From a virus (Duplodnaviria; Caudoviricetes), in IMG/VR virus record IMGVR_UViG_2775506835_000006, positions 17,517 through 81,516 of that record: 64,000 bases of DNA. One strand, written 5' to 3'. A program made the position numbers and the translations under genes. Positions 32,152-51,721 of the stretch are shown here, piece after piece (position 1 is the stretch's first letter; every line of letters begins with the position of its first letter). The notes under the pieces are model-generated. The model saw nothing but the letters and a program-made list of their open reading frames with translations. It did not search any database and was not told where the DNA came from.

Positions 32152-32229
32152 TTATCTTGCAGTTCGTTCTCACTTTATTCTTTATCTTTTACTGAAGATA
32201 TTGCATAGGGCCTACATTGAATCATCATT

Positions 32230-32332
32230 CTAAGGAAGTAAGCCGGTCAACTGGCACAAGGATTCAAATCCCTTTACCCTCCGACAAAAGCCGCATGGTT
32301 AAGCCGTTTTCGGACAACCATGCGACTTTTTT
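32230..32332 (+). repeat. Degenerate tRNA-Ser 3' fragment plus terminator (relict att site)
   Basis: Diverged copy of 32657-32759 including the GCCGCATGGTT...AACCATGCG hairpin. Confidence 0.7.
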
Positions 32333-32650
32333 ATTGCTTTCAGGCAGGTTCAACAAAAACAGCGCGAAGCTATCCGGAAATGGATAGTTGCGCCACGATT
32401 GACAGATTCCAGTTTCGGGTGCAAAATATTTTATAATGTAAAGAAAATCTAATCGAACTCATCTAAAATATCGAGGAGTTCAGAACCATGCAGTGATGGG
32501 GAGAAGATCGTCGGGAAGCTTCTGAGCGAGTGTAATGGCAAAAATAAAAGCGCAGCTATTCATTGCGGACGGCTGTATTAAAATTTTAGCCATTCCCACT
32601 CTATTCCCACTTTATGTTCAAAGTATTGCATAAAGCCACAAAATAAATCA

Positions 32651-32712
32651 CCCCTGCTAAGGGAGTAGGTCGGGCAACTGGCGCAAGGGTTCAAATCCCT
32701 TCTTCTCCGCCA
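32651..32712 (+). tRNA. tRNA-Ser(GCT) 3' fragment from anticodon arm to CCA; att site, not an intact tRNA
   Basis: CCCCT-GCT-AAGGGAG, long variable arm, GGGTTCAAATCCC T-arm, TTCTCCGCCA end; acceptor 5' strand and D arm absent. Confidence 0.85.
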
Positions 32713-32760
32713 AAAGCCGCATGGTTAAGCCGTTTTTCGGACAACCATGCGGCTTTTTTG
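32713..32760. terminator. Terminator between att site and integrase 3' end
   Basis: AAAGCCGCATGGTT...AACCATGCGGCTTTTTT. Confidence 0.75.
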
Positions 32761-32836: not shown

Positions 32837-33951
32837 TTAAAGCTGATCCACAGCTTTTAAGAGTTCTTCCAAAGGAGTATGAATGTAGTTCTCGTAGGTG
32901 GTTTCAAAATCAGCGTGCCCGCCCGCTTCTGCAATCACCGCTGGGGCAATGGTGCTCTTGCTTGCGAGGCGCGTGAAATAGGTATGCCGGCAAGTGTAGG
33001 GAACAAGGTGCCGGACGCCTACACGCTCTACAGTCTCCCAATAGGCAGCATAGAAATTGTCTTCATTCATTTCAAGTAGCTTGCGGCGTCGGGAATGCAT
33101 GAGTTCCCGGATGATGGGGACGATCTTTGTGGCGATCGGGATTCTTCGGTTTGTGCCTGCTTCGGTTTTGTTTCCTCCGATCATATACCGTTCATCCAGA
33201 TAAATGTTTTTTAAAAGGATGTCGAAGAGTTCTCCCGGGCGCATACCGGTATATAGAAGAATCAGTATGTATCCGGTAAAAGGGTGCAGCCTCTGGCCGA
33301 TGTCGTTGAGCTCATTAAAGTCTTTCCAAAAACGCTGCACTTCCAGATCGTCAAACGCTTCTCGCTGTTTCTTTTTTAACTCAGGAAGTTCCAGATTCTC
33401 TGTTTTATTATAGGTGCAGATTTCTTTTTTCATCGCCAGTTTGTACAGGTGCGAAAGCATGTCTCGCATATCCCTGGCGGGGTAATAGGTATTCGTCATT
33501 CTATTGATAACGGTTTGCATATCATCCACACCGGTTTCGGAAATTGGCTTCCGATGCAGGGCGGCCAGTCGCTTCCAGGCATACCCAAGCTTGTCCTTCT
33601 GCGATTTGCTGAGCTTTTGGTATTTGCGCGATTCCAGAAACTCGTTGTGCAATTGTTCAAAGGTGATACCTGCTTTGTCGCTTGTGCCCGCCAAAGTAGG
33701 GAGGTAGTCCACCGCATCCTTTTTCCTTTCAAAGGTTTTGGTGGCCTTCTTCCGATGAAGATTTCCGTCGTCTCCTATGTAGTAGTAAAGCGTGACTTCG
33801 GCAACGTACTTCTTACCGCGCTGATATACGGTTCCGGTACCGTTCCCCCTGGACTTAGGTTTGCGCTCCCTGGCAGCGAGACCCCGCAGTAAAGGCAATA
33901 TGCAGAACTGTCGGGAATCTCCTTTCCGCATTTTTTGTTTTTACAAATCAC
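32837..33951 (-). CDS. int: Tyrosine integrase; N-terminal zinc ribbon appears to be in a different frame (probable frameshift near 33870-33885)
   Basis: 'YTGMRPGEL', 'KTEAG', 'YTCRHT', 'GH', 'YIH'; AAGGAGG RBS precedes GTG at 33951. Confidence 0.85.
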
Positions 33952-36566: not shown

Positions 36567-36648
36567 TCAAATCAATTGAAAAAATTGTCTTCTATGTGGT
36601 CAGACAACGGGAGACGAGCAGAAATCACGCAATGAAGGAGAACAAGCC

Positions 36649-36870
36649 GTGAACAAAGACAGTCCATACATAAAGCACAGCCGTCTGGGCGTGATCTTGT
36701 TTGTTACCGGCCTGATCGGGGCCTTCCTCACAGCCATGGCGTCGGACAGCGGAATGCTGACCGTCTACCAAGTGTTGATTATGACAACGGCAGAGAGTTT
36801 GGCTATGGGGATTGGCGGGTTGCTGCGTGATAAAGATTCACAGAATGGAGGTCGAGAAAAACAAAAATGA
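36649..36870 (+). CDS. Small two-TM membrane protein
   Basis: AAGGAG RBS, two hydrophobic segments. Confidence 0.55.
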   Translation: MNKDSPYIKHSRLGVILFVTGLIGAFLTAMASDSGMLTVYQVLIMTTAESLAMGIGGLLRDKDSQNGGREKQK

Positions 36871-37982
36871 AAAGCTGTATGGAGAGAATGAAGGAGAATC
36901 ACACAGACGAGAAAATCGCTTCGTTTCGGGTAAAACAGAAACTACCGTATGAAGCAAAAATAAACTATGCATACACACGCGCATGGGAGTTCTACAACGA
37001 GTGTGGCAAGCGAGGACTGAACTGTCATGTATCCGTAGGTGGTCTGGACAGCATTACTTTGCTGTTGTTTTTGCGGTCCATTGGGATAGATGTTCCAGCG
37101 GTTTCGGTATCGACCCTGGAGGACAAGAGCATTCAGGCCATACATAAAACATTGGGAATCATTTCACTGAAACCTTTAAAGAGCAAAACACAAGTTCTGC
37201 AGGAATGTGGGTTCCCGGTACTGTCTAAAGAAACGGCGTCGAAGATCGAGCTGCTACAGAATCCATCTCCAAAGAATGCCACAGTCCGGCATGCAATCAT
37301 CACAGGAGAAACCGGAGCATACGGAGGAAACCGGACAGGCACCCGGATGAAGATGGCTCAGAAATGGCTGGAACTGTTTGCAGGAGGTGAAAATGAACGG
37401 GAGGATGTGCAATATCAATGTGCGCCGTTTAAAGTATCCGCCAAGTGTTGCTATTACCTCAAAGAGAAGCCATGTGATGACTGGGCGAAAGAACACAACA
37501 GTGTACCGTATCTGGGTCTCATGGCGTCCGAAGGAGGTCGCCGCCAAAAGTCGCTCATGATGAATGGATGCAACTACTTTGGAAAGACAGCGATACGGTC
37601 AGCGCCATTTGCGATATTTGACCGCCAAGATCTGTTGCAGCTTGCCCTTGACCTGGATGTACCTGTTCCAGAGGTATACGGCACCATAGAATGCCAAGCA
37701 GATGGCACGCTTTACACAACAAGAGCACAGAGGACAGGCTGCTCCATGTGCGGGTTTGGAATCCAGCTCGAAAAGAGACCGCATCGATTTGACCGGCTCT
37801 ACGAAGACAACCCGAAAGAATGGAATTTTTGGATGCACCGATGTGTGAAAGATCCAGTTACAAATGAAGTATATGGGTGGGGTAGGGTGCTGGACTACAT
37901 AGGGGTACATTGGACACAGGGATCATTACAAACAGATCTGGACTTGCAAGCAGGGAAAACTGCCAGCAGAAAGAAAGGATGA
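36867..37982 (+). CDS. PAPS-reductase-like (PP-loop, Fe-S) phage protein
   Basis: 'SVGGLDS' PP-loop, 'KCCYYLKEKP', 'RTGCSMCGFG'. Confidence 0.8.
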   Translation: MKSCMERMKENHTDEKIASFRVKQKLPYEAKINYAYTRAWEFYNECGKRGLNCHVSVGGLDSITLLLFLRSIGIDVPAVSVSTLEDKSIQAIHKTLGIISLKPLKSKTQVLQECGFPVLSKETASKIELLQNPSPKNATVRHAIITGETGAYGGNRTGTRMKMAQKWLELFAGGENEREDVQYQCAPFKVSAKCCYYLKEKPCDDWAKEHNSVPYLGLMASEGGRRQKSLMMNGCNYFGKTAIRSAPFAIFDRQDLLQLALDLDVPVPEVYGTIECQADGTLYTTRAQRTGCSMCGFGIQLEKRPHRFDRLYEDNPKEWNFWMHRCVKDPVTNEVYGWGRVLDYIGVHWTQGSLQTDLDLQAGKTASRKKG

Positions 37983-37989
37983 CGAAGAC

Positions 37990-38253
37990 TTGAGATTGCG
38001 AGAATATCCATTGGGGAACCGCAATATTGTAGGTGCCCGTGTTACGGAAGCACGCCGCCGTGTGAACATGCCTCAAAGAGTCTTACTTGCAAAAATGCAG
38101 GTCAAAGGCATAGAACTGAACACATCCGGTTTATCCAAATTGGAAGGGCAGCACCGGTATGTTATGGATTTTGAACTTGCGGCGCTGGCTGATGTTTTGG
38201 ATGTAAAAGTGGATTGGCTCCTTGGAAGAGACGACTACATAAAGGGGAAGTAG
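37990..38253 (+). CDS. XRE-family HTH protein
   Basis: 'NIVGARV...LSKLEGQHRYVMDFEL..LADVLDV'. Confidence 0.75.
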   Translation: MRLREYPLGNRNIVGARVTEARRRVNMPQRVLLAKMQVKGIELNTSGLSKLEGQHRYVMDFELAALADVLDVKVDWLLGRDDYIKGK

Positions 38254-38255
38254 AA

Positions 38256-38549
38256 ATGCAGAAGGACAAAAAAGAAGCCGCCCTGGGCGTTACGAGCACC
38301 CAAAGCGGCAAAGCGAAATGCGACAACATTTCTAATCAAAGTGTAGAGCAGAATAGCGTGAATGTCAAGACGCTGGAAATGGTAAAGGAATTGGTTTGGT
38401 TAAAGGAAAACGTGGAAAAGCGGTATACCGCCGGCAAGGTGGATTCCTGTTATGTGTATACCCATGACGATGATAACGGTGCACAGGCAGGTGTTTCCTT
38501 TACGTGTGCGGGAGAGCTGTACACGTTGACATTGCATCATGAGGTTTAA
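38256..38549 (+). CDS. Phage hypothetical protein
   Basis: ATG 38256 after GGGG RBS; tight operon. Confidence 0.55.
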   Translation: MQKDKKEAALGVTSTQSGKAKCDNISNQSVEQNSVNVKTLEMVKELVWLKENVEKRYTAGKVDSCYVYTHDDDNGAQAGVSFTCAGELYTLTLHHEV

Positions 38550-38560
38550 ATGGTAGAGAT

Positions 38561-39046
38561 ATGACACGTGCAGAGTTGATATCCATCTTAAATACGACAC
38601 TGGATGCTACCTTGAGAGACTGTAAAGAGGACAACCCCATTGTATTCTGGACGTTCTTCATGAATCACTTTGACGGAACAGTTCGCCGCAAAATCGGTGA
38701 TGATCTGGAACGCAAGGGAAAGAACCGATACACAGGAGAACCAGCAAAAGCCAAACAGACAGAATCTGCGGTAATAAGCAAATGTGACCAGTGCTGGTGT
38801 GACACATGCAAGAACTTTGATGACTGTGTGATTGATATGGAGGACTGTGATGCAGAGGTGGAGCCATGTCCCTGTGATGCATGTGTAGACAGAGACTGCC
38901 CACCTTATTCACCCATTACAGCGGAACCGCCATGCGGCAAATACCGCGCACACGAAGCAGGAAGGATGGAACATGCCCAAGAAAAAGAACAGAAACAGAA
39001 TATTTATCAGCCAAAAAGAAGCCTGCGAAAACTGCCAGTGCCATGA
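38561..39046 (+). CDS. Cys-rich hypothetical protein
   Basis: CxxCxCxxC...CPCxxC...C cluster. Confidence 0.55.
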   Translation: MTRAELISILNTTLDATLRDCKEDNPIVFWTFFMNHFDGTVRRKIGDDLERKGKNRYTGEPAKAKQTESAVISKCDQCWCDTCKNFDDCVIDMEDCDAEVEPCPCDACVDRDCPPYSPITAEPPCGKYRAHEAGRMEHAQEKEQKQNIYQPKRSLRKLPVP

Positions 39047-39209
39047 CTGCGCAAAGCGGGAAATCTGCCGGCTGCGCCGTCCACCGCCTCCGCCACCAGA
39101 ACGGGAAATGCTGCCATATCCCTGTCAGGGCTGCGGGAGGGATGGGGTTTACCAGCCCTTTGTCCCGAGGACTACGGCGGCGATCTGCCAGATGTGCATA
39201 ACGTCGTAG
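38973..39209 (+). CDS. Cys-rich hypothetical protein (paralogous motif to upstream gene)
   Basis: CxxCxCxxC...PYPCxxC...CxxC; AGGA RBS. Confidence 0.5.
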   Translation: MPKKKNRNRIFISQKEACENCQCHDCAKREICRLRRPPPPPPEREMLPYPCQGCGRDGVYQPFVPRTTAAICQMCITS

Positions 39210-39223
39210 GGGGGACCGGTGAA

Positions 39224-39418
39224 ATGAAACCGCCCTATGATAATACAATTTGCCCACTATGCGGAAAGGACGTGCAACAAACGCGTGTCTGGACACATTG
39301 TCCATTGTATGAAGCTATGATTTGTCAGGATCACTGCTATGCCGGCTGTTCTTCCAGAAATGAATGGTCCCCGCACTGCAGGTACGATGCCGCATTGGGA
39401 CAGGTAAACGGCAATTGA
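39224..39418 (+). CDS. Small Cys/His-rich protein
   Basis: CxxC...C...CxxHCxxxC...C. Confidence 0.5.
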   Translation: MKPPYDNTICPLCGKDVQQTRVWTHCPLYEAMICQDHCYAGCSSRNEWSPHCRYDAALGQVNGN

Positions 39419-39616
39419 ATATGAATAAAAATCACCCATCGACATGAGGCCCGGCAGCCGTCGATGGGTGAAGCATTACCCGGATAGTATCCGGAGCAAA
39501 TACATTGTACACCATCTGCTCCATGTGTATTATCCCAATAGGCAAAAGTCCGGGCCTTTTCTGCCTTGGTTGAGGTATTAACATTACGGGCATAACTGGG
39601 AGAGGGAGGAAGAGCG

Positions 39617-40420
39617 GTGTACCTGAAGAAGACCTGTAAAGCTGGAATCACTATAGAAGTACACAAGAGCTATTCCGCCCGGTACGGCCGAAACATCCCA
39701 AGGGGAAAAAGAGAAAGCCGCACACCGGAGGCGATGAAAAAATACAACGAGAAGATGGCGTGGAGAAAGCTCACCCGGCAGATCAACGCGAACTTTGTTC
39801 CCGGGGATCTATTCCTGACCTGCACCTACCGGAAGGAGGTGCGTCCGGATCCACAGCGGGCGAAGCAAAATATAGAGAATTTCCTGGACCGTGTACGTAG
39901 GCGTTTCAAAAAGGCAGGGGTGGAGTTTAAATACATTCTGGTGACAGCCTATGGAAAGCAGGGCGGGATCCATCATCACGTGATCATTCCTGCATTTGAT
40001 TATCAGGTTGTTACAGCATGTTGGCCGCACGGAGCTATGCGGTTTGAGGCCCTGTATCCAGATGGCGAATACTCCGCCCTTGCCTGGTATCTTATCAAAC
40101 AATCCCGCCTGTCCCCAGATGGAAGGGAATCCATTCCCGGGAATCGATGGTCCGGAAGCCGGAATCTTATCAAGCCGGTGGAGAAGGTGCAGGAGGTAGA
40201 CGCCAGGGAGTGGCGCGAGGAACCGAAACCTGTTAAAGGCTATTACATAGATCCGAATTCTGTAGAGAATGGGATTTCGCCGGTCACGGGGATTCCATAT
40301 CAGTTCTACAGGATGATTCAAATACAGTCATTACAAAAGGAAAGAGAAAGTTTAACAAATACAAAGCGATCCAAGGGAGAGAAACTAAAAGATAAACGAA
40401 GTAAAGGACATTCTAAATAG
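39617..40420 (+). CDS. HUH-superfamily rolling-circle replication initiator-like protein
   Basis: Motif I 'FLTCTY', motif II 'IHHHVII', motif III 'YLIKQ', 'RWSGSRNL'; GGAGG RBS. Confidence 0.75.
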   Translation: MYLKKTCKAGITIEVHKSYSARYGRNIPRGKRESRTPEAMKKYNEKMAWRKLTRQINANFVPGDLFLTCTYRKEVRPDPQRAKQNIENFLDRVRRRFKKAGVEFKYILVTAYGKQGGIHHHVIIPAFDYQVVTACWPHGAMRFEALYPDGEYSALAWYLIKQSRLSPDGRESIPGNRWSGSRNLIKPVEKVQEVDAREWREEPKPVKGYYIDPNSVENGISPVTGIPYQFYRMIQIQSLQKERESLTNTKRSKGEKLKDKRSKGHSK

Positions 40421-40688
40421 AATTAAAAGTAAAATCAACCGGTCGTAAGTGTTTAAAGTACAGCGGCTTAAAGAGCAAAAGTCACGTGCGTTGAGCTTTT
40501 TCTAACGAGCATATAGATAAAGTGCGAATCGCAAGCTCACATAGATTTCTTAAGAGATTCGCACCTCGCATAGTTACTGGATTTTTTGCATTTTAATTCT
40601 CATACAGGGGAATTGTTTTCTCATTTTTATGGGATTCGCATTTTAGGCCTTTACAACCCGCATGGTTACTGGGTATAATAGGGGTGCA
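40421..40688 (+). promoter_or_regulatory. CRISPR leader with promoter
   Basis: AT-rich; inverted repeat GTGCGAATC (40522-40530) / GATTCGCAC (40556-40564); TTTACA (40650)-N18-TATAAT (40674) just before repeat 1. Confidence 0.75.
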
Positions 40689-41056
40689 GTCAAAATCCAC
40701 GCCCCGTAAGGGGACGGAAACCCCCTGCTTCCCGATGCGGTAAATCCCGAAGTCGTGTCAAAATCCACGCCCCGTAAGGGGACGGAAACAGCTCTTTCTA
40801 CATCCAACTGATAAGTTTCATAGGTCAAAATCCACGCCCCGTAAGGGGACGGAAACGGCTGACCGCCAAGCCGCACCAGTAAAATGCGCGTCTAAATCCA
40901 CGCCCCGTAAGGGGACGGAAACATTCCAAAGCTGCTTTAGCTTTGTAGGATTACCGGTCTAAATCCACGCCCCGTAAGGGGACGGAAACCCGCCCTGAAT
41001 ATCATTCGTCCCATAAAAGATGGGTCTAAATCCACGCCCCGTAAGGGGACAAAAAG
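40689..41056 (+). CRISPR. CRISPR mini-array, 6 repeats and 5 spacers, no cas genes in window
   Basis: 33-nt repeat GTC(A/T)AAATCCACGCCCCGTAAGGGGACGGAAAC at 40689, 40757, 40824, 40890, 40957 and 41024 (last degenerate at its 3' end); unique spacers of 35, 34, 33, 34, 34 nt. Confidence 0.97.
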
Positions 41057-41097
41057 AAGCGCCCATTCCGGAAACTTGCCGGAATGGGCGCTTTGTT
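41057..41097 (+). terminator. Terminator closing the CRISPR transcript
   Basis: Perfect 15-bp stem AAGCGCCCATTCCGG / CCGGAATGGGCGCTT then TGTT. Confidence 0.7.
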
Positions 41098-41199
41098 CGC
41101 GTCTAAAAACTGCATCTGTTCCATTTGTGCGATACTTAGAAATAATAGAAGGTATCAATATATCGCATACCACAGCGGTTAAGAATGGAGGCAGGCAGC

Positions 41200-41610
41200 G
41201 TGGGGCGCAGAGACCTGAATTTGGATGAATACAATATCACAAAACTACAGTATCGAGAACTTCATAACTTTTGTTTGCAATATGCTGATAAGAAACAGCA
41301 GCTTGCGGAACTGAAAAATCCATATGGGAGTTCACAGGGTTACAATACGCCGACTGGCTGTACAATAGGAGATCCAACTGCAAGGACAGCGGAACGAATC
41401 ATAATCCTTTCTAAAGAGATTGAAGCAATTGAACAAACCGCTATGGAGATCGCCCCGGAAGAATACCAGAATATTCTGTTGGCGGTAACGGAGGACGTTC
41501 CCTGGCATTTCCTACAGCTGTTAAAAGGGTTAGAAATGGGAAGGCATGACTTTGAATGTGCTAGAAGGCGCTTTTACTATAATCTTGCACAAAGAAAAGG
41601 GATGATATAA
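41200..41610 (+). CDS. ArpU/RinA-like late transcription regulator
   Basis: 'GDPTARTA...IEQTA...RRRFYYNLA'; position just before terminase. Confidence 0.6.
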   Translation: MGRRDLNLDEYNITKLQYRELHNFCLQYADKKQQLAELKNPYGSSQGYNTPTGCTIGDPTARTAERIIILSKEIEAIEQTAMEIAPEEYQNILLAVTEDVPWHFLQLLKGLEMGRHDFECARRRFYYNLAQRKGMI

Positions 41611-41769: not shown

Positions 41770-41976
41770 TTGAATTACAAAGAAACGATAGCAGAATGTG
41801 AGGCCGAAATAGCCGTTATTGACGCAAAGCTTGCCCAGATCAGAACCAGCAACAATTGGCTGGAGAACGCCCGATACAATCAGCTCTCTTGTATGCGCGG
41901 GGACCTGTGTCTGCAGCTCCACGCGGCACGGATCGCAGCGAGCAGGGGCCGGCCACCGGATGGAGGTGATCCGTAA
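41770..41976 (+). CDS. Hypothetical protein
   Basis: AAAGGAGG RBS, TTG start, overlaps terminase start. Confidence 0.55.
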   Translation: MNYKETIAECEAEIAVIDAKLAQIRTSNNWLENARYNQLSCMRGDLCLQLHAARIAASRGRPPDGGDP

Positions 41977-42497
41977 TGGCATTAAAAGCAAAACAAAAAC
42001 GATTCGTTGAAGAATACCTTGTTGATTTAAATGCAACGCAGGCGGCAATCCGCGCCGGATATTCTCCGGAATCTGCTGGATCAATCGGGAGTGAAAACCT
42101 GCATAAACCTGAAATCCGCACGCGTATAGACAAGGCTATGGCCGAACGCTCGAAACGGACCGGAATCAACGCCGACCGTGTCCTTATGGAATTGGGTAAG
42201 ATTGCCTTCATCAATGCCACCGACGTGATCAATATGGATGATGCGACAATCTTGTCTGAAGCCAATCGCGACGACACAGCCGCAATTGCATCCGTGAAAG
42301 TCAAGACCATACCCGGAGAAGATGGAGATGGTGTCGAACGGGAAATCCGCTTGGCTGATAAACTAAAAGCTTTGGAATTGCTGGGTAAACATTTGGGCCT
42401 CTTTACCGATAAGGTAGAAGTGAAAGGGCAGATCGACACCGGGCAGAAAAAGCTTGAGGACATTTTAAGCCAGCTGCGAGGGGATTCCGGTGAATGA
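41976..42497 (+). CDS. terS: Terminase small subunit
   Basis: 'KQKRFVEEYLVDLNATQAAIRAGYS', 'DKLKALELLGKHLGLF'. Confidence 0.95.
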   Translation: MALKAKQKRFVEEYLVDLNATQAAIRAGYSPESAGSIGSENLHKPEIRTRIDKAMAERSKRTGINADRVLMELGKIAFINATDVINMDDATILSEANRDDTAAIASVKVKTIPGEDGDGVEREIRLADKLKALELLGKHLGLFTDKVEVKGQIDTGQKKLEDILSQLRGDSGE

Positions 42498-43854
42498 GCG
42501 CCTGATACTTTCAGAAAAGTATAAAGCCTTTCTCCGGTGCCGGGCACCGTATGAGTTCCTGGAGGGGACCACGGCCGCCGGCAAAACCACGGTGGGGCTG
42601 TTCAAATTCATGCTTCGCGTTGCGGAAAGCCCGAAGAAAATACATATCCTTTCCGGCCTTGACCTTGGCACAATCGAGAAGAACATTATCAACAAAGACC
42701 TGGGGATTCTTGACGACTTCGGCCCGCTGGTGGAATACAATGCGTCCGGCCGCGGACAGAATTCCTTGCCGCATTTGCTTTTCCATGCGCCGTCAGAGGA
42801 CAAAATCGTTTACGTGCTTGGCTACGATAACAAGGCCCGCTGGAAAAAGGCTCTGGGCGGACAGTACGGGTGCCTGTACATTGATGAGATCAATATTGCA
42901 GACATGGAATTCGTCCGTGAAGCGTCTATGCGTTGCGACTACCTGTTGGCCACGCTCAACCCGGATAATCCGGATCTTCCTATCTACTCGGAATACATCA
43001 ACCATGCCCGTCCTTTGCCGGAGTGGGAAAACGAGACACCAAAAGAAATATTGTCGATGCTCAACGAAAAACCAAAGCCAGGCTGGGTGCATTGGTTCTT
43101 TTCTTTTGAACATAATCTCGGGTTGCCAGCGGAAAAGGTGCAGCAGATCAGGGACAGCGTCCCGAAGGGTACAAAGCTTTATAAAAACAAAATTCAGGGC
43201 CTGCGCGGCCGCGCAACAGGGCTGGTGTTCAACTTGCAGCCGCATAATCTGGTTTCCGCCAAGTGGCTTCTGGAACAGATGCAGAGCAATCAAATTAAAT
43301 TTCTGCAAGTGTCTGCAGGCGTAGATACATCGTATTCGCAGCAGTCAGCCGATACATTTGCATTCGTGTTTTCCGGTATTACGACCGACAGGCGGAAGAT
43401 CACGCTGGCCACGGAGGTACACAACAACCGGGGTCTAACAACGCCGCTGGCGCCCAGCGATATACCACCTCTGCTGATCACGTTCTTGGAGAAGTATCGC
43501 ACCATCTTTGATCTGTTCGCCCGCAGCGTCTTCATCGATTCCGCGGATGAGGCCACGATCATTGAATGCCAGAAATACAAACGTCTGCACGGAAGCGTCT
43601 ATGAGTTTTGCCCGGCCTGGAAGAAGACAAAAATCATTGACCGTATCAATTTACAGTCCGGCTGGCTGGCGAGCGGGGATTATCTCCTTGTAACAGAATA
43701 TTGCAGAGCGGAGATTGATGAACTGAATGCATATAGCTGGAAGGAAGACAAAGACAATGAGCCGGAGGACGGCAACGACCATACGATCAACGCAGACCAG
43801 TACAGCTGGCTGCCGTACAAAGGCAGGATAGGGGGCAAGGTGATGGTTACTTGA
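42490..43854 (+). CDS. terL: Terminase large subunit
   Basis: Walker A 'GTTAAGKT', Walker B 'YIDE', 'TLNP', nuclease 'GVD' and 'DGNDHTINA..Y'. Confidence 0.92.
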   Translation: MNERLILSEKYKAFLRCRAPYEFLEGTTAAGKTTVGLFKFMLRVAESPKKIHILSGLDLGTIEKNIINKDLGILDDFGPLVEYNASGRGQNSLPHLLFHAPSEDKIVYVLGYDNKARWKKALGGQYGCLYIDEINIADMEFVREASMRCDYLLATLNPDNPDLPIYSEYINHARPLPEWENETPKEILSMLNEKPKPGWVHWFFSFEHNLGLPAEKVQQIRDSVPKGTKLYKNKIQGLRGRATGLVFNLQPHNLVSAKWLLEQMQSNQIKFLQVSAGVDTSYSQQSADTFAFVFSGITTDRRKITLATEVHNNRGLTTPLAPSDIPPLLITFLEKYRTIFDLFARSVFIDSADEATIIECQKYKRLHGSVYEFCPAWKKTKIIDRINLQSGWLASGDYLLVTEYCRAEIDELNAYSWKEDKDNEPEDGNDHTINADQYSWLPYKGRIGGKVMVT

Positions 43855-45326
43855 AATTGAGGGAGAAGGTGAAAGATATGCTGCGCAATTGGCTGCAAAT
43901 CCAGCCCGCAACGCCGAACGGGATCGTAATCCAGGAGCCCTTGGATTTTCAGGCGTCGGTGATACGCAATCAAATTTGGTATCGCGGGGAGGCTGCGGAG
44001 CTGGAGCAGCTCTACAAGCAGCTTGGAGCGCAGGACAGTACGAACGCATCCCGGTTTTGGGCTGCCGTGCCCGCCAACGCGATGAAACTGCGCAAAATTC
44101 ATTCCGGCCTGCCCGCGATCCTGGTAGACACACTGGCGTATTTGGTCAAGTCGGATATGGATGATGTAGCTTTTAAAGACAACTGCGGGGAAGCAGAGTG
44201 GAAGGCGATCACAGAAGAACTGGATTTTCAAGATACCGTTGGACAGGGTGTCGCCGGCGCGCTGAAAGCAGCGGACGGGGCCTGGAAAATATCCATAGAT
44301 ATAACCGTATCTCAGTACCCGATCGTCGAGTTTTATGAAGCGGACCGCGTGGAATACATCCAAAGCCGCGGGCGTGTAATAGGTGTGAAATTTTGGTCGG
44401 ACCATTCAGACGGCTATAAGGTGTACCGGCTATGTGAGGAATACGGGAAGGGGTATGTTTCGTACGCCCTGTATGACGGGACCAGTGAAGTCCCGCTCGA
44501 CCGCATACCGGAGCTGGCGGAATTGAAACCGGTTGCTTTTGATGGGGACTTCATGATGGCGGTGCCGTTCAAAGTCTTTGAGAGCGCCAAATTCCCAGGC
44601 CGCGGAAAAGCTCTGTATGAAAGCAAACTGGACAGCTTTGACGCGCTGGATGAAGTCATCAGCCAATGGTGGGACGCCATGCGCGCGGGCCGGGTGAAAA
44701 AGTATATCCCACGCGACCTGTTGCCGGTAGACCCCAAAACAGGAAATCTGTTGCCGCTGAATGATTTTGGCAGCGAGTACATCACTACGGAATCGCTGAC
44801 GGATGAAAACGGCGTGAGTAGAATCGATACCATACAGCCGGAAATCCGGTATGAAGCGTTTCTGTCTTCCTATACGGCCGCGCTGGACATGTGCCTGCAG
44901 GGGGTTGTTTCCCCGGCCACTCTGGGCATTGACGTTGGTAAGATGAGCAGCGCGGAGGCCCAGCGGGAAAAAAAGGATGTCACAGGGTATACGCGCAATA
45001 CCATAACCGGAGTTCTGGAAAAAGTGCTGCCGCAGCTGGTGTCGACGATCCTGATGGTCAACGATCTTATGCAGGGACGCGCCCCGGGAAACTACGAGCC
45101 ATCTGTGGGCTTTGGCGAATATGGCGCACCGTCTTTTGATAGCCGGGTGGAGACAGTCAACAGGGCCGCCGCCGCCAATACCATGAGCATAGAAACACAG
45201 GTGGATGAGCTGTGGGGGAACAGTAAAGACGACGGATGGAAGACCGGTGAAGTTGCCCGCATCAAGCAACTGCGCGGGATCGAGACGGTAGATGGACCGC
45301 CCGCGGTGGGGGATGAGCTGGCATGA
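43851..45326 (+). CDS. Portal protein (A118-like)
   Basis: 491 aa after TerL; 'SPATLGID', 'AQREKK'. Confidence 0.8.
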   Translation: MKLREKVKDMLRNWLQIQPATPNGIVIQEPLDFQASVIRNQIWYRGEAAELEQLYKQLGAQDSTNASRFWAAVPANAMKLRKIHSGLPAILVDTLAYLVKSDMDDVAFKDNCGEAEWKAITEELDFQDTVGQGVAGALKAADGAWKISIDITVSQYPIVEFYEADRVEYIQSRGRVIGVKFWSDHSDGYKVYRLCEEYGKGYVSYALYDGTSEVPLDRIPELAELKPVAFDGDFMMAVPFKVFESAKFPGRGKALYESKLDSFDALDEVISQWWDAMRAGRVKKYIPRDLLPVDPKTGNLLPLNDFGSEYITTESLTDENGVSRIDTIQPEIRYEAFLSSYTAALDMCLQGVVSPATLGIDVGKMSSAEAQREKKDVTGYTRNTITGVLEKVLPQLVSTILMVNDLMQGRAPGNYEPSVGFGEYGAPSFDSRVETVNRAAAANTMSIETQVDELWGNSKDDGWKTGEVARIKQLRGIETVDGPPAVGDELA

Positions 45327-46984
45327 CTTGGCGTCAAATCGCGGCACTCTTCGAGAAAATAGAACTGCGCCTGATCGCGTCCCTGAAACGGAATCTGGCT
45401 GCACACAAGCGCTGGGAGTGCGACGAAGGTTTTAAGTGGCCTGCCTGGCAGGCGGAGAAACTTCATAATCTGGAACGCTTTCGTAAGGAAAATCAGGAGA
45501 TTTTAAATGAGTACCAGAACGTGATTGATGAAGAAACACAGGCCATGTTGCAGGCGCAGTTTGCAGAGGGTGCGGAAGCACCCGAAGAAAGCCTCCCTGA
45601 ACCCACTTTCTTCGGCGTCAATGAGCCGCGATTAGAAAACCTGATCGAGGATATCCAACATGTGGAGGGGAAAGCCGAAAGCGCTGCACTGCGCATGATG
45701 GACGACGTCTATCGTCGGACCATACTGCAGGCGGAAACGGCTATGTCGGCAGGTGCGGTAACTTTGCCGCAGGCGATCGACCTGGCGGTCAAAGACTTTT
45801 TAGAACGTGGGATCACCTGCATTGAGTACAAAGACGGCAGCCGCCACAATATCACCGATTATGTCCAGATGGCTCTGCGCACAGCGGCAACGCGTTCCTA
45901 CCTGCAAGGGGAGGCACAACGCCGGGAAGATCTGGGAATCGATACCGTACTGGTCAGCCAGTACGGGCAGTGCTCAGAAACCTGCCTCCCCTGGCAAGGG
46001 CGCGTATACATTGACGATGTTTGGGGGAGCTGGAACGGGGAACGGGCGGGAGACCGAGGGAAAAGCGTAAACGGAAAATGGTATCCGTTGCTTTCTGTGG
46101 CTGTGAAAAACGGGCTTTTTCACCCCAATTGCCGCCACACGCTCTCCACCTGGTACGAAGGGATCAGTACGGTGCCGGAGCCGATGGACGCTAAAAAAAT
46201 CCGCAGGGACGCCGCTCTTGAGCAAAAACAGCGGGCGATAGAACGGAACATCCGACGCCTGAAACGCCTCTCAGAGGGCACGCAGGAGCCGGAAAAAGCG
46301 AAAGAATACCGAAGGCAGGTCAAACAAGCCCAGAAAGAGCTGCGGGACATTATCGCGGAGCACGACGACGTATTGCGCCGCGACTATTGGCGTGAAAAGA
46401 CCTACGGTGTGCCGGAGGTTGAAAAGCCCGCAAAAACTGCTATACTGAGGGATATAAACACAGACTATCTGCCGGTGACCAATGCTGCAATCCAGCGTGT
46501 GCCGCTGTTAAAATCATCTCTACTGACAGACCAACAGAACAAGGAACTGCGGAAAAAGCACAGGGATCTTTTGAGATACGTTCAGGAAGATGCGGTCGGC
46601 ACAGAAGCGGTTGCCTCGTATGACATGCAGCTTACGGAGCTGAACTGTTGGAAAGGGACGGAGGAGGGGAAGGTGAAACCTCCCAGAGAATCGGTCCCTT
46701 ATATGGTCATTCACAATCATCCAAGCGACGGTATTTTGGCGGTCGACGATCTTTTGGAGATGCTGCGGCAAGACAACCTGCTGCTGATCACAGCGATTGG
46801 AAACGCTGGCCATGTCAGTATGATGGAACGACTTCCGAATAACGATCCGGGCGCCTATTTGGGTTTTGTTGTCCAGGAGGCCGCCCGGAAATCCGGCTGG
46901 GACCCCTCGCCGGAAGAGTGGGTGGAATTCACAGAACATATTTTGAAAGCGGGGAAAGACTATGGCTTCAGGTTTATCCGATGA
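45323..46984 (+). CDS. Minor capsid protein (head morphogenesis) with C-terminal JAB/MPN-like extension
   Basis: 'CLPWQGRVY', 'GLFHPNCRH', 'LRRDYWREK'; extension containing E...HNHPSDGILAVDD. Confidence 0.8.
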   Translation: MTWRQIAALFEKIELRLIASLKRNLAAHKRWECDEGFKWPAWQAEKLHNLERFRKENQEILNEYQNVIDEETQAMLQAQFAEGAEAPEESLPEPTFFGVNEPRLENLIEDIQHVEGKAESAALRMMDDVYRRTILQAETAMSAGAVTLPQAIDLAVKDFLERGITCIEYKDGSRHNITDYVQMALRTAATRSYLQGEAQRREDLGIDTVLVSQYGQCSETCLPWQGRVYIDDVWGSWNGERAGDRGKSVNGKWYPLLSVAVKNGLFHPNCRHTLSTWYEGISTVPEPMDAKKIRRDAALEQKQRAIERNIRRLKRLSEGTQEPEKAKEYRRQVKQAQKELRDIIAEHDDVLRRDYWREKTYGVPEVEKPAKTAILRDINTDYLPVTNAAIQRVPLLKSSLLTDQQNKELRKKHRDLLRYVQEDAVGTEAVASYDMQLTELNCWKGTEEGKVKPPRESVPYMVIHNHPSDGILAVDDLLEMLRQDNLLLITAIGNAGHVSMMERLPNNDPGAYLGFVVQEAARKSGWDPSPEEWVEFTEHILKAGKDYGFRFIR

Positions 46985-47831: not shown

Positions 47832-48725
47832 ATGGCAGTATATGATTATGCGGAACTGTTCACCCGTCAGCTTGCGCAGAAATACGAAAGGGAACTGTGC
47901 TCCGACGCACTTACCAAAAGCAACTTAGGGGTGCAGTTTATCAACGCACAGACAATCAAACTTCCGCGTATGACCCTGAGCGGATACAAGGACCACACCC
48001 GCACGCCGGGCTTCAACGCCGGCACACTGTCCAACGACTGGGAACCGAAAAAGCTGGAGCATGACCGCGACGTGGAATTCTTCATCGATCCGATGGACAT
48101 CGACGAAACCAATCTGGTCACGTCCGTAGCGAATATCCAGAACACCTTTGAGGAGGAACAGGCGATCCCGGAAAAGGATTCTTATCGCTTCTCCAAACTG
48201 CATGCAGAGCTGTTGCAATACAGCGTGACGCCGGATTCCACGGCGATCACCGCGCAGAATATTTTGGAGATGTTCGACGAGTATATGGCCAAAATGGACG
48301 AGGCCGGCGTCCCGGAAGAAGGCCGTATCATCTACGCAACGCCCGCGGTGAGGAAGGTTATCAAAGAGGCAGAGGGTGTACAGCGCATGATGGGTGTCAC
48401 GTCCGTCGGCGGCATCAACCGCCAGGTGCACAGCCTGGATGATGTTCAGATCAAGATGGTTCCGGCCGCCCGCATGAAGACGAAGTATGACTTTACCGCT
48501 GGGTGCGTTCCGGCTTCTGATGCAAAGCAGATTAATTTCATTCTCCTGCATCCGTCTGCGGTCATTTGTCGGGATAAGTACAGCTATATCAAGCTGTTCA
48601 CGCCGGGCACCGACAGCCGCACCGCCGACGGATACCTGTACCAGAACCGTAATTACGGAGACTTGTTCCTGATTGAGCGGAAGGTTGCGGGTGTTGTAAT
48701 GAATGCGAAAGCTGCGGGCGCATAA
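47832..48725 (+). CDS. Major capsid protein
   Basis: 'HDRDVEFFIDPMDIDETN', 'IPEKDSYRFSKL', 'YQNRNYGDLF'. Confidence 0.9.
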   Translation: MAVYDYAELFTRQLAQKYERELCSDALTKSNLGVQFINAQTIKLPRMTLSGYKDHTRTPGFNAGTLSNDWEPKKLEHDRDVEFFIDPMDIDETNLVTSVANIQNTFEEEQAIPEKDSYRFSKLHAELLQYSVTPDSTAITAQNILEMFDEYMAKMDEAGVPEEGRIIYATPAVRKVIKEAEGVQRMMGVTSVGGINRQVHSLDDVQIKMVPAARMKTKYDFTAGCVPASDAKQINFILLHPSAVICRDKYSYIKLFTPGTDSRTADGYLYQNRNYGDLFLIERKVAGVVMNAKAAGA

Positions 48726-48739
48726 CAGGAGGGATTGAC

Positions 48740-48973
48740 ATGAAAGCAGTAAAAGCGAATAAGGAATACACGATCGACGAAGCACGGAAGGCACAGTATA
48801 TCAAGGACGGCTTCGATATCATCGGTGATGACGGAAAAGTGGTACAGCAGGGGGCGGGTAAAACCGTCCCCTTTGCAAAATATCAGGCGGCGCTCGATGA
48901 GAACACAGCACTGAAGCAGCAGGTGGAAGACCTGCGGACGATGCTTGCTGAAAAAGAGACGCCTAAAAAGTAA
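48740..48973 (+). CDS. Hypothetical head-associated protein
   Basis: GGAGG RBS; 'KANKEYTI...YIKDGFDI'. Confidence 0.65.
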   Translation: MKAVKANKEYTIDEARKAQYIKDGFDIIGDDGKVVQQGAGKTVPFAKYQAALDENTALKQQVEDLRTMLAEKETPKK

Positions 48974-48984
48974 GCGGTGGTGAA

Positions 48985-49359
48985 ATGATGCGGTATATCT
49001 CGCTGGAAGACTATTGGAGACTGTACCCTGAAGGACAAGCCTCCGTAGAGGAAATGGAACAAGCTGAGGATGACATTGACGCGCTGACGCTTAACCGCAT
49101 CGTCGCTCGTGGTATCGAGGCTTTGCCGGAGTTTCAGCGCCGGCTGGTGGTTCGGGCGGTGTGCCGGCAGGCAGAATTCCTGCACGACTACGGGGAGGTT
49201 TTAAGCAATCCGTTATCGTCCTACGGTATCAACGGCGTGTCCATGTCCTGGGACAAGAAAACGTTGGTACCGCGGGGACCGGTGCGGACCACAAACGCCG
49301 TATACGCCCTCCTGCAGCAGTCCGGACTTACCTATTGTGGATTGGACGGGAGGGGATAG
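48985..49359 (+). CDS. Head-tail adaptor
   Basis: 'IDALTLNRI', 'AVCRQAEF', 'SGLTY'. Confidence 0.7.
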   Translation: MMRYISLEDYWRLYPEGQASVEEMEQAEDDIDALTLNRIVARGIEALPEFQRRLVVRAVCRQAEFLHDYGEVLSNPLSSYGINGVSMSWDKKTLVPRGPVRTTNAVYALLQQSGLTYCGLDGRG

Positions 49360-49362
49360 CAT

Positions 49363-49710
49363 ATGGCAAAATGGCCTAAGCTTGTTCCTCCCGCCGCTTG
49401 CAACACGCCGATCACCGTGCGGCTGCAGGAAGGCGTGGAGGACGACGGCAGCCCAAAATATACCGTGGTGTGGGAAGGCAAGTGCAATTACTCCGAAAAA
49501 TCCCGGCAGGTGCTGGATGAAAAGCGGCAGCTAGTGGAGCTGCAGGCCCGCACGTTGATCGATGGGGACATTGCCCCGGGGCAGGATATCGCAGGCGAAG
49601 CGGAGATCACGTCCGTAGGATCTCCTGGGGTTATACGGCGTATTTATAGCGCATCCCGTGCGCGGTATCCCGACGGGACAGTGAATTTTACACAGCTGGA
49701 GTTGATGTGA
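49363..49710 (+). CDS. Head closure protein
   Basis: 'RYPDGTVNFTQLEL'; synteny. Confidence 0.6.
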   Translation: MAKWPKLVPPAACNTPITVRLQEGVEDDGSPKYTVVWEGKCNYSEKSRQVLDEKRQLVELQARTLIDGDIAPGQDIAGEAEITSVGSPGVIRRIYSASRARYPDGTVNFTQLELM

Positions 49711-49711
49711 T

Positions 49712-50089
49712 ATGCCCGGCATCCAAATTGTGTTGGATCAGGTTGCAATTGCCCGTCTGGGAGAGGCTGCGGAACGTGCGGCGAGGATGGCGATAGACGC
49801 CCTGAAGACAGACGTTGTATCCGCGCAGGTGATGCCCTATGATATGGGCGACATGCAGGACACCCAGACATTCGTGGACGTTATACGCGAAGGGGACCGG
49901 ATTCTGGCCACGCTGACCACCGGTGCCCCGCAGGCCCGCCGGCTTTACTATCACCCGGAGTACAATTTCCAGAAGGGCAACAATCCAAACGCCGGTGGGT
50001 TGTGGTTGCAGCCCTGGTTGAATGGAGAGAAGAAGAGTTTCGTTCAAGATGCGTTCGCAGAGTTCTACCGGAAGGAGGCGGGATTGTGA
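49712..50089 (+). CDS. Neck / tail completion protein
   Basis: 'PQARRLYYHPEYNF...NPNAGGLW'. Confidence 0.65.
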   Translation: MPGIQIVLDQVAIARLGEAAERAARMAIDALKTDVVSAQVMPYDMGDMQDTQTFVDVIREGDRILATLTTGAPQARRLYYHPEYNFQKGNNPNAGGLWLQPWLNGEKKSFVQDAFAEFYRKEAGL

Positions 50090-50496
50090 TGCTGATGCTG
50101 AAGCAGGTGGCAGAATGGATCAAAGAAATTGATACAGAACTGCCCGGTTGCATTGCCGTCGGGACAATTGACGGAAACAAAGAAAAATATATCGGCGTCT
50201 ACAACGACCCGAACGCCTCCGGAAAGCAGCGCGTCTGCCTCGGGGGCATAGCGCAGACAACGTACCGGGAAAAGCGCGTCACGCTGCTGGTGCATTGGAC
50301 AAACTCGGCGGTACAGGCGGAAAAAAAGGCCGCGGAGCTATATGAAAAGCTCTGCGGCCGATCCGGATTTCAAATCGGTGAAGTGAAAATTGTGTACTTG
50401 GATCCCGGTGCGGCGCCTGTCTCTGTGGGACGAGATGTGCGGGGTATATACGAGTACGTTATAAACATGAAGATCATTTATGAAAGGATGGGATGA
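50086..50496 (+). CDS. Tail terminator protein
   Basis: AAGGAGG RBS; 'GRDVRGIYEYVIN'. Confidence 0.6.
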   Translation: MMLMLKQVAEWIKEIDTELPGCIAVGTIDGNKEKYIGVYNDPNASGKQRVCLGGIAQTTYREKRVTLLVHWTNSAVQAEKKAAELYEKLCGRSGFQIGEVKIVYLDPGAAPVSVGRDVRGIYEYVINMKIIYERMG

Positions 50497-50497
50497 C

Positions 50498-50944
50498 ATG
50501 GCTAAGACAGGTGTATTCCCGGTTTTTGACAACAAATTTAAAATTGGGACTAGTGGCAGATCGAGCGCGGACTCCGACATGGTGACCATCAAGGAGATGG
50601 AAACATTCTCAGTGAAGATCGACGGCAAAGTGCAGGAGTGGAGCCCGATGGAGGAACAGGGGTGGACCAAGCGCATGACCACCGGTAAGGCAATTACGTT
50701 GTCTCTTTCTGGCAAACTGTGCCCCGGTGATCCCGGGAACGATTATGTAGCCGCGGCTGCGTGGAAAAGCGGTACGGACTGCGACACCAAGTTTGAATGG
50801 GAATTCCCCAGTGGCGCGAAGCTGGCGTTTGACGCGGTATTGAACGTGACGGATATCGGTGGTGGTGACAGCACCGCTGTGGCGGCCTTGGCATTTGACT
50901 GCATGTCACACGGCAAGCCGGTGTATACGCCTGCGCCGGAATGA
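50498..50944 (+). CDS. Major tail tube protein (siphovirus)
   Basis: 'EWSPMEEQGW...GDPGNDY...SHGKP'. Confidence 0.8.
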   Translation: MAKTGVFPVFDNKFKIGTSGRSSADSDMVTIKEMETFSVKIDGKVQEWSPMEEQGWTKRMTTGKAITLSLSGKLCPGDPGNDYVAAAAWKSGTDCDTKFEWEFPSGAKLAFDAVLNVTDIGGGDSTAVAALAFDCMSHGKPVYTPAPE

Positions 50945-50952
50945 GCATAAAA

Positions 50953-50985
50953 ATAACCGCGCCCCCAAAAAAGGGACGCGGTTAT
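50953..50985. terminator. Bidirectional terminator
   Basis: ATAACCGCG...CGCGGTTAT between convergent genes. Confidence 0.6.
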
Positions 50986-50992
50986 AATTCAT

Positions 50993-51541
50993 TTATTTTT
51001 TTAGGAAACAACCAGCGGAATCGGTAAAACTTCCGCAAAGAATTGTAATTAAATCTATAATCCAGCCAAACCAAAAAAGCCCGCCGGTAAAAAGCCAAAT
51101 AATCCCTGTTCCTACTTTACCTACATAGAATCTATGAAAACCAAAGAATCCTAAAAATAAGCATAAAAAGAATGCCAGCCATTTGCTTTTAATACTAATT
51201 CCACCTCTGCCAGTACCGGTATTGGCCATATTCGTATTGGTGTTCGTATTATTAATAATTATTGTTGGCTGTTGTGGCATCTGGGTGGTATATGGATTTG
51301 CTGAGAACTGCGTCGGGCTCTGATGCGATTGCACGGGATTCTGGTAGGAGGGCTGCATTGGGGTGGGGTACGAAGGGGCGGGCGAGTTTGGCAATATATC
51401 GGGTTTCTGAGGTTGATATGTCGGTTGCTGGTTTATGGGTTGGGCACTGGCTGGTTCAGCTGCTTTTTGCTCTATATCAGCTCCACAAAATGGACAGAAT
51501 TTGAAACCGCCGACATTTTCGCCGCACTTGGGACATTTCAT
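50993..51541 (-). CDS. Zinc-ribbon plus TM2 domain membrane protein (moron)
   Basis: 'CPKCG...FCPFCG', Pro/Gln linker, '[25 protein letters not shown]'. Confidence 0.85.
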
Positions 51542-51721
51542 AAATTCTACCTCCCAAAAGTTCATTATTTGTTCATATTATAAGGTATAACGACAATTTC
51601 TGCAATAGAAAAGAAAAATTATCTTGTTTCGTATTTGAGTTTGAATAGGCAGGAAAACCGCACTTTGTTTTGAGTGCGGTTTTCTTATACCTGAATTTTT
51701 TATCTAATGGAGGAATTTTAG

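Follow-up and report, generated by a model that had tools for sequence, protein, structure and literature searches.

Which machinery fills and which machinery reads a CRISPR array, when the array is carried by a prophage without cas genes and its leader and repeat point to different subtypes? This question is raised by a stretch of 64,000 nt (hereafter the window) of IMG/VR virus record IMGVR_UViG_2775506835_000006, which corresponds to G000:C11:447398-511397, where G000 is the source genome (3.5 Mb, 99.9% complete). Here, a small array lies in the middle of a temperate tailed prophage (Caudoviricetes). We hold it to be rather probable that the type I-C integrase of the host loads the spacers of this array, that Cas6 and the Csm complex of the host use them, and that the phage would thereby exploit both systems against its competitors. 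The parts of the array unit are, in positions of the window:

40523-40565, no strand assigned: 43-bp palindromic leader element GTGCGAAT-N27-ATTCGCAC, the type I-C leader signature
40633-40640, no strand assigned: second GATTCGCA half-site, 10 nt before the -35 box, from an alignment of six leaders of four genomes
40650-40679, + strand: predicted promoter TTTACA-18-TATAAT, 11/12 consensus matches
40686-40691, + strand: leader-repeat junction GCA/GTC (the slash marks the junction), which fits the I-C consensus G-C-W/G-T-C
40689-41056, + strand: CRISPR array of six 33-nt repeats and five spacers, from a repeat scan
40722-40756, 40790-40823, 40857-40889, 40923-40956 and 40990-41023, + strand: the five spacers, of 35, 34, 33, 34 and 34 nt
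40790-40823, + strand: spacer 2, antisense to a large-terminase-like gene (an open reading frame, ORF, of ~590 aa)
40990-41023, + strand: spacer 5, antisense to a GDSL-domain tail-fibre-like gene
41024-41056, + strand: degenerate terminal repeat (3' end ..GGGGACAAAAAG, also given as ..GACAAAAAG), from the repeat alignment
41057-41093, no strand assigned: terminator-like hairpin with a 15-bp stem directly 3' of the last repeat, predicted to close the array transcript

The repeat, GTCAAAATCCACGCCCCGTAAGGGGACGGAAAC, starts on the + strand at 40689, 40757, 40824, 40890, 40957 and 41024. The spacing of 66-68 nt between near-identical direct repeats and the five unique spacers are those of a CRISPR array in general, and a 21-nt core of the repeat is found six times in the window against no match in 100 shuffles. 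Repeats 4-6 open with GTCT, not GTCA. Within the repeat, the hairpin CCCC-GTAA-GGGG is followed by ACGGAAAC (predicted fold -10.2 kcal/mol), and the reverse strand does read GTCCCCTTACGGGGCGTGGATT. The repeat, the spacer sizes, the hairpin with its tag, the reverse-strand core and the leader palindrome are all present as an earlier note, made from the letters of this DNA, had described them. The interval that it gave, 40520-40721, covers the leader and the first repeat, while the array extends to 41056.

The array is a complete CRISPR transcription unit by its signals, with a leader, a promoter, six repeats, five spacers and a terminator, and it would be transcribed on the + strand. This orientation is indicated by the promoter, by the side on which the leader lies, by the degeneracy of the distal repeat and by the top Rfam hits, all below threshold. 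The promoter is the sole promoter-like site adjoining the array, and it reads the + strand. In the Rfam scan nothing reached the gathering thresholds; with an E-value threshold, CRISPR-DR hits alone were obtained, nearly all of them, and the best ones, on the + strand.

The machinery that could read the array is encoded on the same contig. A host operon of cas10/csm1 (TIGR02578, 490 bits), csm2, csm3, csm4, csm5 and cas6 lies at G000:C11:511795-518213, 23 kb from the phage array, and a type III-A array of 13 repeats, with a degenerate 14th just beyond, follows on the - strand at G000:C11:519135-519976, 31 kb from the phage array. The phage repeat and the host III-A repeat are identical in 32 of 33 positions, the sole difference being C for T at position 8. 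It is through this host array that the phage repeat is associated with a csm operon and with Cas6, and the cas6 gene of this operon is the only one in the whole genome, as seen in a six-frame search. The last 8 nt of the repeat, ACGGAAAC, equal the tag of the CRISPR RNA (crRNA) of the Streptococcus thermophilus III-A system as given in a preprint passage, and they are preceded by a short hairpin, as expected for type III-A. The type III-A 3' handle proposed in the earlier note is thus borne out both by this tag and by the near-identical repeats that adjoin cas10-csm2-5-cas6, which a search for the repeat beside cas operons recovered. The repeat length of 33 nt departs from the 36 nt of characterised III-A systems.

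The five leader-proximal repeats of the host III-A array end with GGAAGT, not GGAAAC, which would alter the crRNA tag of the five newest host spacers. Outside the host, a scan of metagenomes for the repeat family recovered four contigs, three of them similar to the same-genus genome G001 and one from a more distant relative, none obviously viral, and the exact repeat core has no copy in IMG/VR. The phage array gave no real match to the GenBank phage collection (one 37-nt match in Rhodococcus phages is due to chance), and no match was found there for the arrays of G000, of G001 or of G335, an unrelated metagenome-assembled genome (MAG).

Spacers 10 and 11 of the host III-A array are copies of each other, identical over their 36 nt. 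An "empty" CRISPR unit is located 14-250 nt past the end of the window (G000:C11:511411-511648, L011:2411-2648). In it, a full III-A leader, palindrome and promoter included, is accompanied by a single degenerate repeat and a hairpin terminator; the unit is divergent from cas10 and abuts the right end of the prophage. It could be what is left of an array, or it could be a repeat RNA that stands on its own. Furthermore, a 299-aa DUF6602 protein is encoded after cas6 in the csm operon (L011:9048-9947, G000:C11:518048-518947), and this stretch is kept in G001. No Csm6 was seen in the csm operon, and the DUF6602 protein may be a candidate ancillary effector.

The leader of the phage array leads to another subtype. 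About 170 nt of leader homology, covering the palindrome, the second GATTCGCA and the promoter, are shared by the phage array, the host III-A array and the "empty" unit, and the same leader family is found before related arrays in two same-genus genomes and in one unrelated Clostridia MAG, where the array is followed by csm6 (463 bits). Across this family the second GATTCGCA half-site is kept, with single-base variants in some arrays, and the promoter is kept in five of the six aligned leaders, the sixth (L048) having diverged there. In G000, the I-C array that adjoins cas2 has the same 43-bp palindrome in its leader. When the whole 3.5-Mb genome was searched for the exact arms at a spacing of 28 nt, nine sites were found, each 123-171 nt upstream of an array or unit: five I-C arrays, three III-A units and, beside a TnpB-like gene, an array of a third class. 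In a further I-C array, the tenth array of the genome, the left arm of the palindrome is degenerate. In the phage array, repeat 1 begins at the 124th nt after the palindrome, i.e., 123 nt lie between them.

Outside this genome, one genome per species was scanned with a 20-position motif, which matched at least 119 stretches; 80 loci, all from Firmicutes, were examined. Among the matches listed for these loci there are 83 copies of the palindrome, 66 of them with a detectable downstream array and 17 without, the latter including 12 with less than 260 nt of sequence downstream; the 66 arrays among the matches listed are classical I-C in 65 cases and III-A-like in one (a MAG, beside csm6), and the distance from palindrome to repeat has a median of 126 nt and falls within 110-140 nt in 65/66. 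By this comparison the 43-bp palindrome is a true signature of type I-C leaders, and the phage array carries it. The I-C-like leader palindrome proposed in the earlier note is hence confirmed, at least among the matches listed. The leader-repeat junction points the same way. In 63 I-C arrays the last three leader positions are G in 59/63, C in 55/63 and T or A in 55/63, followed by GTC, and the III-A arrays of G000 read GCA/GTCA. According to a preprint passage, I-C leaders contain subtype-specific motifs 100-200 bp upstream, and in an I-F system, also in a preprint passage, leader motifs direct integration into foreign repeats that begin with 5'-GT, with repeat length being of importance.

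The gene content of the host is that expected for adaptation in trans, where a recipient locus without cas1 and cas2 co-occurs with a type I-C donor. Model III-A loci (S. thermophilus, Staphylococcus epidermidis and Staphylococcus aureus) carry their own cas1 and cas2; the csm locus of G000 has neither. A complete I-C operon is found on contig C12 (233-241 kb), with Cas3, Cas5d, Cas8c (489 bits), Cas7/Csd2, Cas4, Cas1c (478 bits) and Cas2. Cas1 and Cas2 occur once each in the genome, and both, together with a Cas4, belong to this operon. The phage array is on a different contig and is thus not adjacent to I-C cas genes. In G001, the csm locus also lacks cas1 and a single I-C-like Cas1 is present on another contig, while in G335 an I-C-like Cas1 is accompanied by a second, weaker one. 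No Cas1 was found in the same-genus genome G003, which is 88% complete.

The dimensions of the arrays are also those of type I-C. Spacers are 33-36 nt long in every array class of G000, and the repeat length of 33 bp is the I-C length, while the III-A repeats of S. aureus and S. epidermidis are printed as 36 nt. The leader-proximal repeats form blocks that share variants (GGAAGT in five host repeats, GTCA against GTCT in the phage array, loop variants in G001), which shows that the arrays have grown stepwise at the leader end. Precedents exist for such a division of labour. Vink et al. 2021 (PMC8482600) report that a type I acquisition machinery can be shared by type III arrays whose repeats are distinct, and adaptation in trans from a II-C to a VI-B system was proven by experiment (Hoikkala et al. 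2021, PMC8092290, in the part cited here).

Targets could be assigned to two of the five spacers. Spacer 2 matches in 30 of 34 positions in three prophages (in G353, G440 and G585) from three other genera of the same family, and its protospacer is flanked by 5'-TTC in all three. TTC is the canonical protospacer-adjacent motif (PAM) of type I-C. Spacer 5 matches, also in 30 of 34 positions, the GDSL gene of another prophage resident in the same host. Both mapped spacers are antisense to their target ORF, which is the orientation needed for RNA targeting. No match was found for spacers 1, 3 and 4 among GenBank phages, IMG/VR, the own genome and the family genomes, and the searches run found no perfect protospacer for the phage array. 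When the host III-A spacers were compared with 401 family genomes (400 relatives and G000) none matched, which is a weak negative with two candidates scored per genome. Neither did a pool of 79 spacers (from 9 of 11 arrays that were parsed) reveal further credible targets in the own genome and the fetched loci.

It had been expected that a TTC motif next to the protospacers would support acquisition by type I-C. Such a motif is present for spacer 2, while spacer 5 has ACG, and the PAM support for I-C acquisition is suggestive but not decisive. The proposal that the spacers are acquired by I-C Cas1/2/4 and used by a Cas6-dependent effector agrees with a sole Cas1 and Cas2 of type I-C, together with a Cas4 in the same operon, with an I-C junction, with a 33-bp repeat and, for one of the two mapped spacers, with a TTC PAM.

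What had been overlooked in the earlier description of the array is that a prophage carries it. With the replication initiator on its left and the small terminase on its right, the array has the following context:

~32260 and ~32690: two tRNA-Ser 3' fragments just left of the integrase, from a sequence match
32837-33931, - strand: tyrosine integrase, left end of the prophage with the array (PF00589, 4e-14; XerA-like NCBIfam match)
39617-40420, + strand: phage replication initiation protein of the rolling-circle type, immediately 5' of the leader (phrog_3584, 1e-59; PF23343, 2e-15)
41185-41610, + strand: 141-aa phage ORF (phrog_11237)
41976-46984, + strand: packaging and head module with small terminase, large terminase, portal and minor head protein (phrog_51, 5e-48; terminase large-subunit families; phrog_533, 2e-79; phrog_581, 5e-88)
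47832-64000, + strand: rest of the prophage with major head protein, tape measure, tail proteins and lysis genes, from profile matches
60570-61373 and 61437-61931, + strand: endolysin and holin, within the rest of the prophage
61928-64000, + strand: GDSL-domain tail-fibre-like protein (Pfam GDSL match)

Judged from this gene order, the array is an accessory cassette in a variable (moron) slot of a temperate tailed prophage that looks complete, and it does not belong to the CRISPR locus of the host itself. None of the 10 ORFs neighbouring the array matched a Cas family, and in whole-genome searches the sole Cas1, Cas2 and Cas6 all map outside the window. An array with its own leader inside a viral genome without cas genes has the location that is typical of virus-borne mini-arrays.

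The variability of the slot is seen from two other prophages of G000, the IMG/VR contigs L187 and L188, which were found via the replication protein and match C9 and C12 at 100%. L187 is 92.5% identical to the window over 36633-40372, and L188 is 96.5% identical over 36635-38545 and 80.9% over 38957-40372. Similarity resumes, more weakly, from position 41694 of the window (68.5% and 77.2%, respectively). In between, these siblings have a 178-aa ORF and a 170-aa ORF and no array. The 141-aa ORF after the phage array is a weak homolog of the second of the slot ORFs (L187:5164-5676, 33% identity over 98 aa). In total, G000 has at least five prophages with a replication module that is 92-98% identical (C9:~52-60 kb, C12:~154-163 kb, and C11 at ~101 kb, ~434 kb and ~484 kb, the last being that of the window), and just this one has the CRISPR cassette.

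Capture of the cassette through faulty excision from the adjacent "empty" host leader-repeat, i.e., specialised transduction, was considered and rejected, since the cassette is found in the middle of the phage genome, with the replication module on one side and the packaging module on the other, and not at an attachment end. Of the tRNA-Ser 3' copies (window ~32200-32760) one is exact over ~60 nt and one is degenerate, and an intact tRNA-Ser gene is found 50 kb upstream (C11:~429.7 kb), an arrangement suggestive of tandem integrations at a single tRNA. No right-hand attachment copy or direct repeat was found at the right end of the prophage, where one 13-nt match is probably due to chance. The prophage also encodes a PAPS-reductase-like protein (36867-37982; phrog_424, 1e-26), a common phage moron gene. 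Between two prophages, at 19814-32151 of the window, lies a defence cluster, which consists of the type I restriction-modification genes hsdS, hsdM and hsdR (19814-25853, - strand) and a gene for a 1930-aa DUF4011/AAA_11/AAA_12/MTES_1575 nuclease-helicase (26359-32151, + strand).

We suggest the following mechanism. Transcription of the phage array would start from the promoter at 40650-40679 and follow the + strand, and the single Cas6 of the host would cut the transcript into crRNAs that carry the 8-nt ACGGAAAC tag. Once loaded with these crRNAs, the Csm complex of the host would be directed to the transcripts of competitor phages, whereby the lysogen would gain superinfection exclusion of related phages, as proposed for viral mini-arrays. 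New spacers would be inserted in trans by the I-C Cas4-Cas1-Cas2, the only such complex in the cell; we infer this step because the palindrome lies at the I-C distance, the junction is of the I-C type and the repeat and spacer lengths are those of I-C. The host III-A array would be served by the I-C module likewise, and possibly the phage array is too while it is resident.

A wider interpretation can be put forward tentatively, as possible rather than probable. The palindrome module precedes I-C arrays, III-A arrays and an array beside a TnpB/Cas12-like gene in G000. The I-C leader module, i.e., the palindrome ~125 bp upstream, the G-C-W/G-T junction and the 33-bp repeat, might thus be a portable "adaptation socket" that is filled by the I-C Cas4-Cas1-Cas2 whatever the effector may be. 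In that case the array of the prophage would serve as a living memory that updates itself, written by one host system and read by a second one.

Several observations weigh against these proposals. The three protospacers with TTC are homologs of one gene and count as one independent observation, and the protospacer of spacer 5 has the flank ACG, not TTC. Only two of the five spacers were mapped, both imperfectly (30/34). Spacer 5 also matches the GDSL gene of the carrier phage itself in 27 of 34 positions, the two GDSL proteins being 81% identical, and a mismatch-tolerant type III system might have to tolerate this self-match. For the 13 spacers of the host III-A array no protospacer was found in the own genome. 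At position 8 the phage repeat and the host repeat do not agree; however, one array of G001 contains both variants of this position. Finally, the palindrome could instead bind a transcription factor.

The last point leads to the alternative that survives best, which we nevertheless regard as unlikely. Here, the palindrome would be the site of a transcriptional regulator of all these arrays and not a docking site of the integrase, and the III-A arrays would either not change at all or owe their spacers to a Cas1-Cas2 that is now gone. Its position ~85 nt upstream of the -35 box is plausible for an activator or repressor, one copy is found in the divergent region upstream of cas10, the tie between palindrome and Cas1-Cas2 rests on sequence comparison, and spacer 5 is without a TTC PAM. 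However, a regulator leaves the I-C-type junction unexplained, as it does the 33-bp repeat, the I-C-like spacer lengths and the TTC flank of spacer 2. Nor does it fit with the stepwise growth of the arrays in a genus where G000 and G001 have an I-C Cas1 only and none was found in G003. The tight distance between motif and repeat, seen in 65/66 among the matches listed, is instead what is expected for integration that depends on the shape of the DNA.

It is quite unlikely that the prophage array is an inert hitch-hiker, a piece of the host III-A locus which was gained by recombination and is neither expressed nor used. The array is small, its terminal repeat is degenerate and no perfect protospacer was found in the searches run, all of which would agree with such an origin. 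Against it speak five intact repeats, a promoter with 11/12 consensus matches, an intact 43-bp motif and an own terminator. The two mapped spacers match phage structural and packaging genes in antisense, and the cassette occupies a defined accessory (moron) slot of a complete-looking phage.

The earlier note had also described the repeat as an inverted I-C core that might be used in both orientations. The similarity itself is real: when the repeat is reverse-complemented, it has GCGTGGATT in common with 26 of 54 distinct I-C repeats and a stretch of at least GTGGATT in common with 47, and its mean longest common substring with the 54 repeats is 7.98, against 4.38 +/- 0.35 in 200 shuffles (maximum 5.57), while the forward strand, with 4.50, is at shuffle level. 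On the transcribed strand, the I-C consensus (GTCGC-stem-GCGTGGATTGAAAY) is not found, and just the ends GTC..GAAAC and the length agree. However, the 54 I-C repeats all share this box, so the match is a single 9-mer coincidence and not 54 independent ones, with a chance that we ourselves estimate at roughly 0.5%. The III-A repeat of S. epidermidis, as printed in a published table, likewise has a CCCAC box directly 5' of its stem, and so does the host III-A copy, where the reverse strand reads GTGGGTT. The box is thus a general feature of III-A repeats and not an I-C graft. Its distance of 5 nt from the end of the repeat is the same as in I-C repeats, though at the opposite end, and it can be speculated that a two-fold symmetric integrase would see both alike.

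We see no support for use in both orientations. At the distal end no promoter-like site faces the - strand, and in the - orientation repeats 1-3 (a hairpin followed by UGGAUUUUGA) and the distal hairpin score as terminators, although repeats 4-6 (UGGAUUUAGA) do not score as such by that hairpin. The would-be 11-nt handle differs from the I-C handle of G000 at 4 of 11 positions, and the + orientation is indicated by the leader, by the degeneracy of the terminal repeat and by the Rfam hits alike. A chimera whose + transcript is used by Cas6/Csm and whose - transcript is used by Cas5d/Cascade is thus very improbable.

The palindrome is also found before arrays on viral contigs. In IMG/VR it precedes 24 arrays on 29 viral contigs, and six of the 24 are non-I-C, belonging to four repeat classes. 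Three of these classes are short arrays of 3-5 repeats (loci L196, L198, L200, L206 and L210), and the fourth is the array of G000 beside the TnpB/Cas12-like gene. The latter locus (G000:C11:22941-25218; L035:10941-13218, also L208) has a 509-aa TnpB-like ORF (NF040570, 6e-20) followed by the nine repeats of the third class, with the palindrome 171 nt upstream of the array. It is located at the end of another prophage, listed as viral in IMG/VR; possibly, this is a type V-like module that is carried by a phage and likewise relies on I-C adaptation.

The locus belongs to two known kinds, viral mini-arrays and trans-adaptation. The closest viral relatives are the mini-arrays of the Sulfolobales viruses SPV1 and SPV2, whose repeats match the host CRISPR and for which exclusion of competitors has been suggested (Medvedeva et al. 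2019, PMC6858448; review PMC11656645; both cited from excerpts). As in these, an array with a leader and without cas genes is found inside a viral genome and its repeats match a host system. The spacers of SPV1 and SPV2, as described in these excerpts, match genes of related viruses; here, two of five match phage genes, one target being in a co-resident prophage of the sibling type. According to the same excerpts, the present array differs from them in its bacterial host and temperate tailed prophage, in having five spacers against one or two, in the combination of a type III-A repeat with a leader whose adaptation signature is that of another subtype, I-C, and in a polylysogenic host with at least five sibling prophages, of which one has an array.

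As in the cases described in the cited part of Vink et al. 2021 (PMC8482600), a III-A system without cas1 and cas2 co-occurs with a type I Cas1-Cas2, the repeats are distinct and a type I PAM lies next to a type III protospacer. In that part, distinct repeats with shared machinery are given for I-B/III (15) and I-E/III (3), while I-C/III appears under "shared repeats" only (3). In contrast, I-C and III-A with distinct repeats are combined here, with a specific shared cis-element (palindrome and junction) and with an array that is phage-borne. The Flavobacterium columnare II-C/VI-B pair (PMC8092290) is similar in that, as far as the cited part goes, an RNA-targeting locus lacks cas1/2, the repeats are equal in length and the shared motifs are distal to the junction. 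There, the proof is experimental and the leaders are described as sharing just poly(A)/poly(T) tracts, whereas here the evidence is genomic and the motif is long, exact and diagnostic of the subtype.

Compared with single-type arrays, the locus resembles each in part. The hairpin followed by the 8-nt tag (ACGGAAAC, that of S. thermophilus), the CCCAC box (as in S. epidermidis) and the csm operon with cas6 are shared with the III-A systems of these species as far as the sources excerpted here describe them. The classical III-A arrays of S. aureus and S. epidermidis, in the forms printed there, differ in their 36-nt repeat, compared with 33 nt, a 4-nt loop and an I-C-type leader here. With Firmicutes I-C arrays the locus shares the palindrome at ~125 nt, the G-C-W/G-T-C junction, spacers of 33-36 nt, a repeat of 32-33 bp that ends with GAAAC or GAAAT, and a TTC PAM for one spacer. 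Unlike them, it lacks GTCGC-stem-GCGTGGATTGAAAT on the transcribed strand, is not beside I-C cas genes and has a hairpin and handle of the Cas6/Csm type. New are thus the I-C/III-A pairing with distinct repeats, the explicit shared cis-element, the location in a prophage and the presence of the motif before four non-I-C classes in IMG/VR.

How loci without adaptation genes, of type III and others, obtain their spacers is still mostly inferred from PAM statistics. The present locus offers a concrete, mutable cis-element that stands before arrays of three repeat classes in one genome, one of them on a prophage. It can thus be asked, in a form that is open to testing, whether the leader rather than the repeat decides which integrase serves an array, and whether a temperate phage can have a CRISPR memory that is updated by host proteins alone and excludes its relatives. 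It also follows that calls of subtype and orientation that are based on the repeat can mislead when leader and repeat stem from different functional lineages. If the leader module is indeed a portable socket, this phage would write with one CRISPR system of its host and read with a second one, amid at least five sibling prophages.

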